Positions 915-17,910 of a DNA stretch of 20,376 bases are shown here, piece after piece (the stretch's first letter is position 1; each line of letters begins with the position of its first letter). The DNA lies in the IMG/VR virus record IMGVR_UViG_2877973648_000005, positions 1-20,376 of that record; one strand, given 5' to 3'. The stretch comes from a virus. Lineage: Duplodnaviria > Heunggongvirae > Uroviricota > Caudoviricetes. The notes under the pieces are model-generated. The model was not told where the DNA came from. It did not search any database and saw only the letters and a list, made by a program, of their open reading frames with translations. The translations under genes were made by a program, and so were the position numbers.

Positions 915-1418
915 TTATTGATAGTGTTTTATGTTCAGATAATGCCCGATGACTTTGTCATGCAGCTCCACCGATTTTGAGAACGACAGCGACTTCCGTC
1001 CCAGCCGTGCCAGGTGCTGCCTCAGATTCAGGTTATGCCGCTCAATTCGCTGCGTATATCGCTTGCTGATTACGTGCAGCTTTCCCTTCAGGCGGGATTC
1101 ATACAGCGGCCAGCCATCCGTCATCCATATCACCACGTCAAAGGGTGACAGCAGGCTCATAAGACGCCCCAGCGTCGCCATAGTGCGTTCACCGAATACG
1201 TGCGCAACAACCGTCTTCCGGAGACTGTCATACGCGTAAAACAGCCAGCGCTGGCGCGATTTAGCCCCGACGTATCCCCACTGTTCGTCCATTTCCGCGC
1301 AGACGATGACGTCACTGCCCGGCTGTATGCGCGAGGTTACCGACTGCGGCCTGAGTTTTTTAAGTGACGTAAAATCGTGTTGAGGCCAACGCCCATAATG
1401 CGGGCTGTTGCCCGGCAT
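915..1418 (-). CDS. insB: IS1 InsB frame (expressed as InsAB' by -1 frameshift)
   Basis: 167-aa ORF overlapping insA in the -1 frame, as in canonical IS1. Confidence 0.88.
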
Positions 1419-1612
1419 CCAACGCCATTCATGGCCATATCAATGATTTTCTGGTGCGTACCGGGTTGAGAAGCGGTGTAAGTGAACTGCAGTTGCCATG
1501 TTTTACGGCAGTGAGAGCAGAGATAGCGCTGATGTCCGGCGGTGCTTTTGCCGTTACGCACCACCCCGTCAGTAGCTGAACAGGAGGGACAGCTGATAGA
1601 AACAGAAGCCAC
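1337..1612 (-). CDS. insA: IS1 InsA (transposition repressor / N-terminal part of the InsAB' transposase)
   Basis: 91-aa [46 protein letters not shown]..., the canonical IS1 InsA. Confidence 0.92.
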
Positions 1613-1699
1613 TGGAGCACCTCAAAAACACCATCATACACTAAATCAGTAAGTTGGCAGCATCACCTTCAATCCGCATGAATTTAAAAAAGACAATTT

Positions 1700-1737
1700 T
1701 TAGAAATAAGCCGGATAAAAAAATAGCTTTATCCGGC
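1700..1737 (-). terminator. Rho-independent terminator downstream of corA
   Basis: Dyad GCCGGATAAA / TTTATCCGGC followed on the minus strand by a T-rich tract, immediately after the corA stop. Confidence 0.55.
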
Positions 1738-1744
1738 ACTCATA

Positions 1745-2695
1745 TTACAACCAGTTCTTCCGCTTAAAGTACAGATACGGTGCCAGGCCCGCGAGGATCA
1801 TAAAGATAATCGCGGCAGGGTAGCCGAAGCTCCACTTCAGTTCTGGCATAAACTCAAAGTTCATGCCATAGCTGGAAGCAACGAGCGTCGGCGGCAGGAA
1901 TACCACGGATACCACCGAGAAGATTTTGATGATGCGGTTCTGCTCGATGTTGATAAAACCCATTGCCGCCTGCATCAGGAAGTTCACCTTCTGGAACAGG
2001 GATTCGTTATGCGGCAGCAGGGATTCGATATCTCGCAGGATTTCACGCGCCTGCTCCAGTTGCCCACCCGGTAAACGCGCTTTACGCACCAGGAAGTTGA
2101 GCGCGCGCTGGGTATCCATCAGACACAGGCGAACTTTCCAGCCGATATCTTCCAGTTCCGCCAGAGTGGAGAGCGCCTCGTCGTACTCATCGCCCTGATG
2201 CCCTTCCATAATCACCCGGCTCAACTGCTCCAGGTCGCTATAGATATTTTCAATTTCATCTGCCAACTGTTCGATTTTGGTTTCGAACAGATCCAGCAGC
2301 AACTCGTAGGCGTTACCGTCTACCATCGACTGGCTACGGGCACGCATACGATACAGACGAAAAGCGGGCAGTTCACGCTCACGCAGAGTAAACAGACGAC
2401 CATCACGGATGGTAAATGCCACAGTGGAGTTACCGGCGTGATCTTCCGCATCTTCAAAGAAGAAGAAGGAGTGAATATGCAGGCCGTCGTCGTCTTCAAA
2501 GAAACGTGCCGATGCTTCGATGTCTTCCAGTTCCGGGCGGGTTGCCAGGCTCTGGCCAAGTTCAGATTGTAAGCGCAGTCGCTCGTCGTCGTCCGGTTCG
2601 ACAAGATCAATCCATACTGCATTTACAAGGGGTTGTGACTCTTCGACTTCCAGCCGGGTCAGTCGGTTATTTTCCAGTTGAAATGCGCTCAGCAT
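1745..2695 (-). CDS. corA: CorA magnesium/cobalt transporter (316 aa, GMN motif)
   Basis: Translation [20 protein letters not shown]...[18 protein letters not shown]...KRKNWL matches E. coli CorA. The ORF track's upstream Met adds 5 codons; the native start is taken as 2695. Confidence 0.9.
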
Positions 2696-3064
2696 GACCG
2701 GGACTCCCAATGCTTAAAATATCGGACAGTTCGGTGGGCACACAGAAACAAATTGGGTTTCAGACCATTAAACAGCCTGACTCAGCGCGACGGGAAAAAT
2801 TGAGGTCGCTGACAACCGCTAAGGCTATCAGCAAAAAGGGATAGCCTTAGGAGTTGATCCTGGATGACAGGATAGTGAGCCAGTATCTACTGGGTGTGTC
2901 CAAGGCGAATGTCCTCTTAGAGTGATCGTGCGCGCATGTTACGCCAGCAAAATTTTGCCGTCAACACGCAACAGAACACCACAGAACAATAGTTGAACTT
3001 CGCGCTTTTTGGTACTCGTCAAGGTCGCTAACAGGATAAAAAAATCCCACATCCAGGACCTATA

Positions 3065-3352
3065 ATGGCGCATCAGCTACTCATTGGTAAAGGAATGATC
3101 ACCTTGAATCTCAAACGGATTTTTCTCGCCCTCACCTTACTTCCCTTGTTTGCTGTTGCCGCTGATGATTGCGCACTCTCAGATCCGACGCTGACCGTAC
3201 AGGCGTATACCGTTAATCCTCAAACAGAGCGGGTGAAAATGTACTGGCAAAAAGCCAATGGCGAAGCGTGGGGAACGTTACATGCTCTGCTGGCGGATAT
3301 TAATAGTCAGGGTCAGGTGCAGATGGCGATGAACGGCGGCATCTATGATGAA
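3065..3352 (+). pseudogene. 5' fragment of a signal-peptide protein gene divergent from corA (possibly yigE), truncated by the IS1 junction
   Basis: ORF with a signal-peptide-like N-terminus (MITLNLKRIFLALTLLPLFAVAA) runs directly into the IS1 inverted repeat at 3353; its last 9 codons in the ORF track (GDAANLLI) are encoded by IS1. The yigE assignment is from remembered K-12 gene order only. Confidence 0.5.
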
Positions 3353-3407
3353 GGTGATGCTGCCAACTTACTGATTTAGTGTATGATGGTGTTTTTGAGG
3401 TGCTCCA

Positions 3408-3683
3408 GTGGCTTCTGTTTCTATCAGCTGTCCCTCCTGTTCAGCTACTGACGGGGTGGTGCGTAACGGCAAAAGCACCGCCGGACATCAGCGCTATCTC
3501 TGCTCTCACTGCCGTAAAACATGGCAACTGCAGTTCACTTACACCGCTTCTCAACCCGGTACGCACCAGAAAATCATTGATATGGCCATGAATGGCGTTG
3601 GATGCCGGGCAACAGCCCGCATTATGGGCGTTGGCCTCAACACGATTTTACGTCACTTAAAAAACTCAGGCCGCAGTCGGTAA
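3408..3683 (+). CDS. insA: IS1 InsA
   Basis: Identical 91-aa translation to the InsA at 1337-1612. Confidence 0.92.
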
Positions 3684-4105
3684 CCTCGCGCATACAGCCG
3701 GGCAGTGACGTCATCGTCTGCGCGGAAATGGACGAACAGTGGGGATACGTCGGGGCTAAATCGCGCCAGCGCTGGCTGTTTTACGCGTATGACAGTCTCC
3801 GGAAGACGGTTGTTGCGCACGTATTCGGTGAACGCACTATGGCGACGCTGGGGCGTCTTATGAGCCTGCTGTCACCCTTTGACGTGGTGATATGGATGAC
3901 GGATGGCTGGCCGCTGTATGAATCCCGCCTGAAGGGAAAGCTGCACGTAATCAGCAAGCGATATACGCAGCGAATTGAGCGGCATAACCTGAATCTGAGG
4001 CAGCACCTGGCACGGCTGGGACGGAAGTCGCTGTCGTTCTCAAAATCGGTGGAGCTGCATGACAAAGTCATCGGGCATTATCTGAACATAAAACACTATC
4101 AATAA
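3602..4105 (+). CDS. insB: IS1 InsB frame
   Basis: Identical 167-aa translation to the InsB at 915-1418. Confidence 0.88.
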
Positions 4106-4480: not shown

Positions 4481-4873
4481 TTATTTCGAACAATCAGCAT
4501 CCATCTCCAATCGGAGAACCAACACCATCAGCATACCCTCCACTACGCCCTCAGCTTTCTGAAGCATCCTGCCAACCCAACAATCAGATCGCCCATGCTT
4601 ACGTGCAAGCGCCATAAAAGTCATGCCGCCGACATAATAGTCCACCAATAAATCATGCAAATCGCTGTTGTTCTTTTTCAGACGGGCCATGCACCCGCAA
4701 ATGATCATCGCGTCATCGTCACAACATTGTGGGCGAGATTTTACTTTTGAAGGAATTAATCCCTTAAAACCGGCGGCAATGGACGACCAGGTCACATCTT
4801 CATGATTATTAGCCGCCCACGCTCCCCAACGCTCAAGAACCATCTGAATATCACGCATCAACTTACTCCACAA
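4481..4873 (-). CDS. Late-gene antiterminator Q, short QuuD-like type
   Basis: Position (last gene of the nin region, upstream of a terminated short leader) and size/sequence resembling the DLP12 QuuD class of Q proteins; the native start may be the internal Met (MRDIQ...). Confidence 0.7.
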
Positions 4874-4943
4874 AACTCAGACCAGAACGCCAATTACAAG
4901 CAAAAATCAACAAAACAGTATTAGTTGATTGTTATCTCTGACT

Positions 4944-5084
4944 TCATACTCCTGCTCCTGTCAGTGTTTTGGCGTAATTCTTCAGTATTCGGTAATCGGT
5001 CAAAACAGAACCGGGGAAACGATATAAGCGCAGACGCCCCCAGCGGTGGCGAAGAAGTTCTGCCATATTAAACTCAAACATCAT
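4944..5084 (-). CDS. Small YlcG-like protein (46 aa)
   Basis: Sub-threshold [49 protein letters not shown] whose start overlaps the rusA stop, as in the DLP12 rusA-ylcG-quuD arrangement. Confidence 0.45.
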
Positions 5085-7384: not shown

Positions 7385-7879
7385 TCATTTCCAATTGCAA
7401 GACTGTGAAATTTTTTCCACAACCTTATCAATCTCAGACAAGTCAAACTCAACTACTTGCATAGTTGATCCATAAGGTTCAAACCCAAAAATAGCTTTTT
7501 TATGCTTAGCCAAGGTCTTTATAAATTGTATTGGTTGTGGAGCAAATGCAGAATCACCGCCTTCCCCACCTCCCCAAACACTCTTGACCGGCTTTCCGCC
7601 ATCTAACCGCACTGTAATTCTTGGGTTGTCCGAACCCATATAATCATTGAATGATAAATAGGCATCTGTTTTGTTATCACTACAACGCAACACCAGTGAA
7701 GTTGCACGATCAGTACCTGCTTTGTTATATGAATCTGGTGATAAATTAAGAGCCACAAAGTCAGTCTGGTCAGTCATTTTATTTATCTCAGACTTTGTTA
7801 TCCACGGCCCTAACTTCTCTACACCAGCATTTGCTGTAAACGAGGCACTTATAACAAAGGCTAAAATAAATTTTCTCAT
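7385..7879 (-). CDS. Hypothetical secreted protein (164 aa) with Sec signal peptide; moron in the ren/ninA position
   Basis: N-terminus MRKFILAFVISASFTANA is a signal peptide; strong RBS aaggaga; AT-rich codon usage distinct from flanking lambda genes; own terminator. Confidence 0.65.
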   Translation of the reverse strand: MRKFILAFVISASFTANAGVEKLGPWITKSEINKMTDQTDFVALNLSPDSYNKAGTDRATSLVLRCSDNKTDAYLSFNDYMGSDNPRITVRLDGGKPVKSVWGGGEGGDSAFAPQPIQFIKTLAKHKKAIFGFEPYGSTMQVVEFDLSEIDKVVEKISQSCNWK

Positions 7880-15699: not shown

Positions 15700-16314
15700 A
15701 TGAAAAAATCAACACTAATTTTAGGGCTTACGTTAATTGTCTCATCTCAAATACCATCGGCAATGGCAAAAAATGAATCAAAACTTTGGGTTGTTGTTGA
15801 TCGAACGGAAAGACATACCTGCCCTTCAAGTAAATGTGGAGTGGCTGGGAAACTATTTTTCAGGGAAGGCGTAGATTTTCTAGAAAAAAAAGGTGAATGG
15901 GTTCGTATAACTGAGCCATATTCAGCCTCATGTGTGGGAGGGGAAAGCGAATATATTAAAGAAGGTAATAAATCCTGCACAAGAAAAAACGGAATCGTTA
16001 ATGGCAAGTTTTCAGAATGGGTTAAACTTAGTGATCTTAGCAGTGAAAGGCCATCAGATCCTGCTGAAAATGCGAGCAGAAATGATACCTTAATCAAAGG
16101 ATCTGATGACTACCGTATATACAAAAAAGAGTTTTCTTCGGCAGCTAGGAAGTTAATAAGTGAAGGTGTCTGCACGGAGAGCGATTTTAAGGAAGTTGGA
16201 GGGTGGATGGCATCAAGCAATAAGGGTGAAAACATCTATTTCACATATTGCGGAGGAATGACGTTGTCGAACAGAATATATCTAGACGTTAAAAGTGGAA
16301 AGACTTTTAGATAA
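15700..16314 (+). CDS. Hypothetical secreted Cys-rich protein (204 aa), cargo gene
   Basis: Signal peptide MKKSTLILGLTLIVSSQIPSAMA; AAGGA RBS; six Cys in the mature part; very AT-rich relative to the prophage backbone. Confidence 0.65.
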   Translation: MKKSTLILGLTLIVSSQIPSAMAKNESKLWVVVDRTERHTCPSSKCGVAGKLFFREGVDFLEKKGEWVRITEPYSASCVGGESEYIKEGNKSCTRKNGIVNGKFSEWVKLSDLSSERPSDPAENASRNDTLIKGSDDYRIYKKEFSSAARKLISEGVCTESDFKEVGGWMASSNKGENIYFTYCGGMTLSNRIYLDVKSGKTFR

Positions 16315-16607
16315 TATGATATTACCAATGACAGCATTAATTTAATGCCTCCATAGAATTATCTCTAGGAAGTAAGTATAAGAAAAGTCCGCACAATGAG
16401 CTGCTGCGGGCTTTGTGTTATTCGCCATATTTTATGAAGCAAATACGACACTATAGATAATTAAGCGTTACTGGTTGTCGATTCCTCACTCATTCCTGCT
16501 GATGGCTGTCTTCTTGTATGTGTCATTGAAGGGTAATATCGCGTAAAAAGATACCGGAAGTATCCGCGCCGCCATGATTGTCTTTCTCCTGATGCAGGAA
16601 AAGCAGA

Positions 16608-16946
16608 ATGACTAAATCAGCAGCAGAGCGCAAAGCCGATCAGAGAGCCAAGCAAGCATCATCCGGTATGCGTAAGCTGGAGCTTGTACTTGATGCTCAG
16701 GAAATTGAAATGCTGGAGCGTAACTGAGCCACGCGCCGCTTCAGGCGTGCGCCTTACGAGTTTGGTGAGTACATAGCGTTACTGAGCCGCCAGGATGATG
16801 CACGTGTGCGCTGGCGTATAAAATCGATTAGCAGAAAACGTTGCCGTAAGTGCGGCGAGAAAGTTCCTGTTAATTCATGCCCGTGTAATGGTGACTCACA
16901 ATACTGGGTGACCAAAGGCTGGCACGAAACAAAATTAATGATATAA
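16608..16946 (+). pseudogene. Zinc-ribbon small protein gene interrupted by an in-frame TGA (39 codons, TGA at 16725-16727, then 72 more sense codons)
   Basis: AGGAAAAG RBS before the ATG at 16608; the same frame continues after the TGA to a TAA at 16944-16946 and encodes CRKCGEKVPVNSCPCNG. Neither half alone reaches 60 aa. Confidence 0.4.
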
Positions 16947-16974
16947 ATCTCTGTGACATGTCACGGAGGCGGCA

Positions 16975-17403
16975 ATGAAATTAGACCAGCAATATCTAAA
17001 AGATCTACTTATCGCATTCGAAAAAACTTATGGCCCTGACACGATGCTTAGTGAACTAGAGGATAATGGCTTTAATAGATATGACCAAAATTTTATTTTC
17101 CATATGCGATTATTATGTGACTACGAATTAATAGTTAGGGTTGATGGAAAACCTGGGTTCGGTCATATAATGTCCAACGAGTTAGGGGAAGGTGTTGAAT
17201 ATAGTTGGATCGAAGTACCACTGAGGTTGACAGCAAGAGGGCATGATTTTATTGCTGACTTACGTCAAAAGGAGGTCTGGCAAGCTATAAAAACAAACTT
17301 TAAGGATGAGGGGATTAGTACTCTTATGAGTGTTTCAAAATCACTAGCAAAAGGCTTTGCAAGAAAAAAAATAAAAGATATTACAGGAATAGATATTGAA
17401 TAA
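16975..17403 (+). CDS. Hypothetical cytoplasmic protein (142 aa), cargo gene
   Basis: Strong GGAGG RBS; AT-rich; followed by a terminator; no recognisable family from sequence alone. Confidence 0.65.
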   Translation: MKLDQQYLKDLLIAFEKTYGPDTMLSELEDNGFNRYDQNFIFHMRLLCDYELIVRVDGKPGFGHIMSNELGEGVEYSWIEVPLRLTARGHDFIADLRQKEVWQAIKTNFKDEGISTLMSVSKSLAKGFARKKIKDITGIDIE

Positions 17404-17448
17404 TTCTTAGCATAAAGCAACTACTGCCTTTGGTGAAAATTATATCTG

Positions 17449-17471
17449 AACTCGCTACGGCGAGTTTTTTT
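17449..17471 (+). terminator. Rho-independent terminator after the 142-aa gene
   Basis: CTCGC-TACG-GCGAG hairpin followed by TTTTTTT. Confidence 0.6.
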
Positions 17472-17511
17472 ATGGAGATGATAAATGCACTTCCGAGTCA
17501 CAGGTGAATAG

Positions 17512-17652
17512 AATGGAGAACCATTCAACAGAGTTATCGAAGCCGAGAACATCAGCGACTGCTATGACCACTGGATGCTGTGGGCGCAGATAGCACATGC
17601 AGACGTAACCAATATTCGAATTGAAGAACTGAAAGAACACCAAGCCGCCTGA
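17512..17652 (+). pseudogene. Start-less 3' remnant of an Ea8.5-like gene
   Basis: 46 sense codons (...ISDCYDHWMLWAQIAHADVTNIRIEELKEHQAA*) bounded upstream by TAG with no initiation codon; lies where lambda ea8.5 sits relative to xis. The Ea8.5 assignment is from position and memory only. Confidence 0.4.
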
Positions 17653-17665
17653 TGGCGGTTTTTTC
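17644..17665 (+). terminator. Rho-independent terminator upstream of xis
   Basis: CCGCC-TGAT-GGCGG hairpin followed by TTTTTT. Confidence 0.5.
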
Positions 17666-17691
17666 TTGCGTGTAATTGCGGAGACTTTGCG

Positions 17692-17910
17692 ATGTACTTG
17701 ACACTTCAAGAGTGGAACGCTCGCCAGCGACGCCCAAGAAGCCTTGAAACAGTTCGTCGATGGGTGCGCGAATGCAGGATATTCCCTCCTCCGGTTAAGG
17801 ATGGAAGAGAATATCTGTTCCACGAATCAGCGGTAAAGGTTGACTTAAATCGACCAGTAACAGGTAGCCTTTTGAAGAGGATCAGAAATGGGAAGAAGGC
17901 GAAGTCATGA
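17692..17910 (+). CDS. xis: Xis excisionase
   Basis: MYLTLQEWNARQRRPRSLETVRRWVRECRIFPPPVKDGREYLFHESAVK... matches lambda Xis; overlaps the int start. Confidence 0.95.
   Translation: MYLTLQEWNARQRRPRSLETVRRWVRECRIFPPPVKDGREYLFHESAVKVDLNRPVTGSLLKRIRNGKKAKS

Follow-up and report, generated by a model that had tools for sequence, protein, structure and literature searches.

An intact DUF2513 gene for a predicted winged-helix protein persists beside a phrog_536 pseudogene in a defective lambdoid prophage

The open reading frame at 16975-17403 of the window (the whole 20,376-nucleotide stretch of DNA analyzed here) is a true, conserved and correctly delimited gene rather than a chance ORF. It encodes a 142-aa protein of the DUF2513 family that is predicted to form a soluble, non-enzymatic winged-helix module, and it is independent of the 112-aa gene upstream, which is dead in this prophage and dispensable or absent at many other loci. 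What the window contains is thus not a new two-gene system but a pseudogene with an intact accessory gene beside it. The gene is already catalogued (WP_000762734.1, DUF2513), is widespread in Escherichia coli and is ordinary in kind. The analysis provides a corrected annotation of the upstream partner, now recognized as a piece of a 112-aa gene with a nonsense mutation, and a confident, model-based winged-helix assignment for a family on which full-text literature searches (DUF2513, PF10711) returned nothing relevant. The wider significance rests on a predicted link between DUF2513 and TIR/Abi-type immune proteins; the gene in itself matters little. The features concerned are these:

16608-16946, plus strand: pseudogene of the 112-aa phrog_536 family (RefSeq "internal stop"; profile matches; translations)
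16939-16947, plus strand: extended -10-like element TGATATAAA, putative own promoter of the DUF2513 gene (sequence inspection; conservation)
16953-16964, no strand: perfect 12-bp palindrome GTGACATGTCAC between the upstream stop and the Shine-Dalgarno sequence, candidate protein-binding site
16965-16969, plus strand: Shine-Dalgarno sequence GGAGG, 5 nt 5' of the ATG (sequence inspection)
16975-17403, plus strand: intact coding sequence with ATG start for the 142-aa DUF2513 protein, a predicted winged helix, identical to WP_000762734.1
17448-17474, plus strand: intrinsic-terminator-like hairpin and T-run (terminator scan)
17485-17652, plus strand: small ORF upstream of xis, interrupted (RefSeq "internal stop"; cross-strain translations)

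By DNA comparison, positions 16400-17700 of the window are 100% identical to E. coli TC24 and other strains. The RefSeq gene order runs from ybhB through IS1, corA, IS1, Q, the nin genes and P/O-like replication genes to the repressor region, and continues with gam/bet/exo, TraR/DksA, a truncated Ea22, a 204-aa ORF, a pseudogene, the DUF2513 gene, a further pseudogene, xis, int and ybhC; this order identifies the window as a defective lambdoid prophage, located at att-lambda. Its late genes are gone, and its early-left (pL) operon reads along the plus strand.

The signals around the gene delimit it well. The choice of start codon is backed by a conserved N terminus, MK(I/L)(D/N), in 42 homologues, and GGAG or GGGG is kept at the Shine-Dalgarno position in homologous loci. 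A spacer of 28 bp (16947-16974) separates the stop of the upstream ORF at 16946 from the ATG, and a terminator hairpin (17448-17467), followed by a T-run, begins 45 nt past the stop codon; the terminator scan called five sites of this kind in the region, compared with an expectation of 1.9 from shuffled sequences. The ORF has a G+C content of 35.2% (47.6% window-wide), and the maximal 19-residue Kyte-Doolittle hydropathy of the protein is 0.76, so that it has no signal peptide or membrane segment. The preliminary description of this DNA had named the 28-bp gap, a strong GGAGG ribosome-binding site, a terminator, AT-richness and the lack of a signal peptide, all of which are confirmed from the sequence.

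The protein is 100% identical to RefSeq WP_000762734.1, a "DUF2513 domain-containing protein," and matches PF10711 (DUF2513) with 42.7 bits against a gathering cut-off of 29.6, residues 2-115 covering model positions 1-100 of 100, as well as phrog_585 (PHROG 585) with an E value of 7e-34 over its full length (residues 1-135 on profile positions 1-127 of 128). In length class (~130-145 aa), motifs and phage or prophage origin, it is a typical family member with no distinguishing difference. A word-indexed search retrieved 113 relatives across the Enterobacterales (Escherichia, Citrobacter, Serratia, Yersinia, Cronobacter, Pantoea and others), and a whole-library profile search yielded 1477 clusters (50% identity). 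An identical protein is recorded in 1628 blocks of the assembly collection and, in each of the eight places examined, lies beside xis-int and ybhC. Homology searching brought a catalogued family and no toxin or enzymatic domain: no enzymatic family matched at E ≤ 1 in Pfam, no PADLOC (E ≤ 1) or NCBIfam model matched the 142-aa protein, neither it nor the upstream protein contains a toxin or antitoxin domain detectable with Pfam, NCBIfam or PADLOC, and Rfam gave only sub-threshold chance matches to RNA elements in the region.

The AlphaFold2 model, built from a 42-sequence alignment, has a pLDDT of 94.2 and a pTM of 0.84. It comprises a first helix (residues 5-16), a short strand, helices 25-30 and 38-49, a four-stranded enlarged wing (residues 53-85) and three C-terminal helices (residues 87-97, 99-108 and 114-137), i.e., a predicted arrangement of H1, strand, H2, H3, variable enlarged β-wing and C-terminal helical region. 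Foldseek against the PDB places PadR, PecS and QsrR at the top, all with E > 0.05, and the fold matches are generic winged helices of the MarR/PadR/HxlR kind only; a BFVD search returned uncharacterized viral proteins only. Taken together, model and fold searches therefore point to a winged helix without a closer structural relative. At the level of sequence, a family profile search of the PDB gave chance matches only (E > 1), and no MarR, PadR or HxlR Pfam family matches at E ≤ 1, so that the protein shares the predicted fold of these regulators and not their sequence-family membership. It also differs from them in an acidic winged-helix part and in a wing that is enlarged and hypervariable. 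Nine residues (F42, H43, D49, R84, L85, T86, G89, H90 and F92) are invariant in the 42 homologues, and the two motifs to which they contribute, FHM..L.D in helix 3 (F-H-M/L) and PLRLT..GH.F just past the wing, flank the most variable stretch of the protein, wing residues 62-80, which also tolerates indels. The calculated pI is 5.4 for the whole protein, 4.5 for the winged-helix part and 9.5 for the C-terminal helices; because the winged-helix part is acidic and the recognition helix rather hydrophobic, DNA binding is uncertain. Between genera, dN is 0.15-0.20 with dS saturated, and dN/dS between Citrobacter and Serratia is 0.075, a pattern of low dN with saturated dS that indicates purifying selection on DUF2513.

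What places DUF2513 among candidates for functions in phage-host conflict is the combination of its mobile accessory behavior, described below, with its occurrence as the N-terminal module of longer proteins. Among the best 150 family representatives, about 10 are longer TIR or AbiTi-like fusions (PDC-S35, PDC-S66, PDC-S60; CAP12/Pycsar-type TIR), whose N-terminal ~130 residues align with the window protein at 36-38% identity with the motifs kept. In P0141 (278 aa), residues 1-133 of the window protein align at 38% identity ahead of a CAP12/Pycsar-type TIR domain; P0247 (407 aa) carries a ThsB-like TIR domain after the DUF2513 module and matches PADLOC PDC-S66 at E 2e-57; P0207 combines the module with a PDC-S60-like PADLOC match; and P0214 and P0125 have the module at the N terminus and an AbiTi-like domain at the end. 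Where fusions match PADLOC, they do so through their TIR or AbiTi-like parts. Many alternative N-terminal domains occur in the TIR family to which P0141 belongs, as expected of sensor or targeting domains that can be swapped. The source organisms of the fusions are other bacteria, most of them environmental, and the window protein lacks their effector domain; literature searches on PDC-S35, PDC-S66, PDC-S60 and PDC-M14 found nothing relevant. This is an argument by association, and the winged helix is a generic kind of module; the neighbors of distant stand-alone DUF2513 genes show no conserved partner and no known defense genes. A weaker relationship links the family to YjcQ (PF09639) of the Bacillus subtilis skin element, to which several DUF2513 relatives cross-match with E values of 5e-6 to 6e-3. 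DUF2513 and YjcQ are alike in being small winged-helix proteins from prophages, of unassigned function; the window protein itself has no PF09639 match at E ≤ 1, and literature searches on YjcQ and PF09639 found nothing relevant.

The reading toward which we lean, with moderate confidence, is that stand-alone DUF2513 is an accessory gene for a non-catalytic winged-helix binding module that works independently of a partner and plays a role in conflict. Such a protein would act by binding rather than catalysis, would probably dimerize through its basic C-terminal helices, and would use the winged helix and the variable wing to recognize a macromolecular ligand, be it DNA or a protein of phage or host. 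Since the module is reused as the N terminus of TIR and AbiTi-like candidate anti-phage proteins, phage-phage or phage-host conflict is the likeliest arena, where the protein could help a lysogen to exclude other phages or could interfere with an immune sensor. Expression might depend on a weak promoter of its own, at the upstream gene's 3' end, or on read-through of the pL operon. A more speculative extension, which we would put forward as a long shot only, casts phage-borne stand-alone DUF2513 as an effector-less sensor or targeting domain, acting either as a decoy or dominant-negative that blunts TIR/AbiT immunity or as a minimal exclusion factor that binds incoming phage through its wing; separately, it would make GTGACATGTCAC and the phrog_536 protein an undescribed boundary or regulatory element with a cargo slot downstream.

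The upstream gene belongs to phrog_536, a family of 112-aa proteins widespread in prophages of the Enterobacteriaceae, in whose alignment Cys40, Cys79, Cys82, Cys91, Cys93 and Cys99 show complete or almost complete conservation. In the window, codon 40, for an invariant Cys, is TGA (16725-16727), and Cys99 is replaced by Tyr (C99Y; TAC at 16902-16904). The two halves of the 16608-16946 frame match phrog_536 profile positions 2-40 and 42-114, respectively, and phage Chlobot, with 98% DNA identity here, has TGT (Cys) at the position of the window's TGA. From the internal stop, the split profile match and the loss of Cys, it follows that the 46-aa ORF at 16806-16946, which had been taken as a "zinc-ribbon ORF" and a gene of its own, is the C-terminal tail of a dead gene. 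The family has no Pfam domain, PADLOC and NCBIfam searches gave nothing for it, and the AlphaFold2 model of the intact protein (pLDDT 55.9) is too poor for a fold search; the ribbon-helix-helix plus zinc-ribbon reading of the protein therefore stays a guess.

A stable hairpin follows the TGA at codon 40, and a different allele in E. coli AST215 (L056) stops at the same codon. Selenocysteine recoding of this TGA was considered, given the Cys homologues, the hairpin and the AST215 stop, and was rejected as the leading reading because Rfam found no SECIS at the TGA, the AST215 allele is recombinant-like with a window-like 5' part, and the window carries C99Y in addition; decay by descent is more likely than Cys/Sec recoding. 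In the Chlobot record (PP925838.1, L002), the segment 4494-4972 is annotated as a "UmuD-like protein" (4494-4811) followed by a 46-aa "transcriptional regulator" (4832-4972), and an uninterrupted 112-aa phrog_536 frame lies at 4634-4972, so that a mis-annotation is probable.

Between the two genes lie the elements that suggest regulation. The extended -10-like element TGATATAAA could be the DUF2513 gene's own promoter, as its conservation hints: TGnTATAAA is kept in E. coli, Enterobacter mori, Citrobacter freundii and Cronobacter, with TATAGT in Serratia and Yersinia, in each case ahead of the palindrome. Its hexamer ends in A and not T, which makes it weak as a promoter, and a consensus promoter scan of the region left it uncalled. 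The palindrome GTGACATGTCAC, present as a single exact copy in the window, recurs exactly or with one mismatch in the E. coli, E. mori, C. freundii, Serratia, Cronobacter and Yersinia loci. A DUF2513 dimer that binds it over its own promoter and start site, and controls its own expression and perhaps that of a few phage genes, would make the protein an autoregulated transcription factor. The MarR/PadR-like fold and the position of a perfect palindrome between the -10-like element and the Shine-Dalgarno sequence, conserved across genera and at partner-less loci too, favor such a scheme. However, the palindrome is equally exact directly after phrog_536, where it overlaps the TGA stop of that gene, in loci without DUF2513. 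In prophages of Salmonella, E. coli, Citrobacter and Cronobacter, it is found where phrog_536 genes end at their 3' side, whether DUF2513 is present or not (copies elsewhere lie at 3336-3347 in L042-L052 and 2242-2253 in L008), and several phages with phrog_536 and without DUF2513 carry a second copy after terL (8252-8263 in L040/L041 and 5787-5798 in L048-L050). More distant DUF2513 loci lack it. The palindrome therefore tracks the phrog_536 module or a module boundary rather than DUF2513 specifically; it could serve as an operator or mark a module boundary. With the winged-helix part at a pI of 4.5 and no match to a MarR or PadR HMM besides, we regard autoregulation as unlikely. The second copies after terL adjoin a terminator-like hairpin.

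The preliminary description had seen in the two ORFs a two-gene operon, a small regulator or partner plus an effector, and an antitoxin/toxin variant of that module, present here as a broken copy, may be considered alongside it. The adjacency itself is not due to chance, since the intact pair recurs with a spacer of ~28 bp in phage Chlobot, E. coli 0H25, Cronobacter prophages and Yersinia frederiksenii, with protein identities of 47-62% for the partner and 64-65% for DUF2513 (Cronobacter, 62% and 65%; Y. frederiksenii, 47% and 65%); a P22-like prophage of AST215 also has the pair, its partner with the stop at codon 40. The Cronobacter pair lies directly before terS, and despite this location, the stretch over which window and Cronobacter DNA are similar is exactly 16607-17400; it opens with the start of the first gene, closes with the stop of the second and takes in nothing more. 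Moreover, partner-less DUF2513 loci in E. mori, C. freundii and Serratia keep the last 10-55 nt of the partner upstream, by which the pair is probably the older, ancestral arrangement of this DUF2513 subfamily.

What speaks against a functional unit is how readily the two genes part. DUF2513 is intact without the partner in Enterobacter, Citrobacter, Serratia, a Klebsiella phage and several E. coli deletion variants, beside a nonsense-mutated partner in the window and AST215, beside an N-terminally truncated one in RM10410, and where the partner has been lost through IS1 or other IS-mediated deletion (2017.17.03CC, L061, L063 and L064); in E. coli with the partner deleted by IS1 or truncated, the DUF2513 protein is 97-100% identical. 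An intact DUF2513 beside a lost partner is unexpected were the partner an antitoxin. In C. freundii, the gene is part of the nin region, behind a dATP/dGTP pyrophosphohydrolase gene; in Serratia, it is located near int, with unrelated genes on one side and an Rv2179c-like exonuclease gene on the other; and distant members (≤51% identity), between Rz/spanin and terS or elsewhere, are never with the partner. Conversely, Salmonella nin regions have phrog_536 but no DUF2513, as do E. coli prophages in which a 70-aa Y11B-like ORF fills the slot before terS; among complete E. coli genomes, 564 carry phrog_536 and 183 carry DUF2513, and ~380 of the 564 have phrog_536 alone. The G+C contents of partner and DUF2513 also differ sharply at every locus examined (49% versus 35% in the window; 64% versus 44% in Cronobacter). 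Of the marks of a type II toxin-antitoxin system, tight same-strand coupling is present, whereas obligate co-occurrence and toxin or antitoxin domains are absent. With each gene common alone and DUF2513 intact beside a dead partner, an obligate regulator/effector or toxin/antitoxin pair is therefore unsupported, and we consider a functional two-gene module quite improbable. Of the operon idea, there remain the recurrent tight adjacency and the terminator after the second gene, in the face of a partner that is dead here and a functional dependence that finds no support; co-occurrence holds in that the intact pair recurs across genera, and fails in that each gene is common without the other. The assignment of roles as small regulator or partner and effector falls away, given that each gene is found alone and that the 142-aa protein belongs to a catalogued family.

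In its distribution, DUF2513 instead has the character of a small, moron-like accessory gene carried by temperate phages of the Enterobacterales, a classification that draws on genomic context. It has its own terminator, a deviant base composition (G+C lower than that of its neighbors also in Cronobacter, Yersinia, Serratia and Citrobacter) and a position that varies between related phages: before xis-int in the window and in Serratia, in the nin region in C. freundii, and between Rz and terS or directly before terS in a Klebsiella phage, Citrobacter murliniae, Cronobacter and loci L009, L013 and L015. The moron concept is reportedly due to Hendrix and colleagues, with lambda bor and lom named as lambdoid examples. 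Like these, DUF2513 is a small extra gene of deviant G+C with its own terminator and a variable position that is kept in the prophage; it differs in that its own promoter is putative and no lysogen phenotype is on record. In decaying prophages, the gene could be kept near int passively, through its closeness to the end of the element.

An intact frame in a decaying prophage might also be a matter of chance, with DUF2513 a functionless passenger. The decayed state of its surroundings favors this, as the frames of Ea22, phrog_536 and the 17485-17652 ORF are all pseudogenes or fragments (in the last, an amber mutation has turned TGG for Trp9 into TAG at 17509-17511, and the ORF is intact in RM10410, 0H25 and AST215), and a few E. 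coli genomes have only truncated DUF2513 remnants (H65-H68). Purifying selection across genera, an intact frame in the variants of the gene that were examined, the 1628 blocks that carry the exact protein and the presence of the gene in an isolated phage, Chlobot, argue the other way and make a mere passenger very improbable. Least credible of all is a DNA-packaging or other late-function accessory factor, suggested by the frequent place just upstream of the small terminase gene noted above, since this slot is a classical accessory-gene site in lambdoid phages, the gene lies in early regions far from terminase in the window, Serratia and C. freundii, and it is still intact in the window prophage, which has lost its late genes.

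The Ea22-to-xis region as a whole is a patchwork of cargo genes and fragments. The 204-aa ORF at 15700-16314 has a signal-peptide or lipoprotein-like N terminus and a G+C content of 38.5%, matches phrog_8310 (function unassigned) at E 7e-135 and, weakly, SH3_3, and gave nothing in PADLOC and NCBIfam model searches; it looks like another accessory gene. Just 5' of the phrog_536 gene, at ~16468-16545, lies a humD/umuD-like remnant, which in sister strains is labeled "DNA repair protein" or "HumD family," incomplete (L055, 3494-3571; L056, 3356-3601). Elsewhere in the window, the 164-aa ORF at 7385-7879 on the minus strand, between ren and nin genes, bears the RefSeq label "type VI secretion system-associated protein TagO," which is unexpected in a lambdoid prophage. 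Finally, at 915-4105, corA (1745-2710) and a copy of ysgD downstream of it are bracketed by two inverted IS1 elements (915-1612, minus strand; 3408-4105, plus strand) that occupy the place expected of the late genes, in what looks like a composite-transposon-like insertion.
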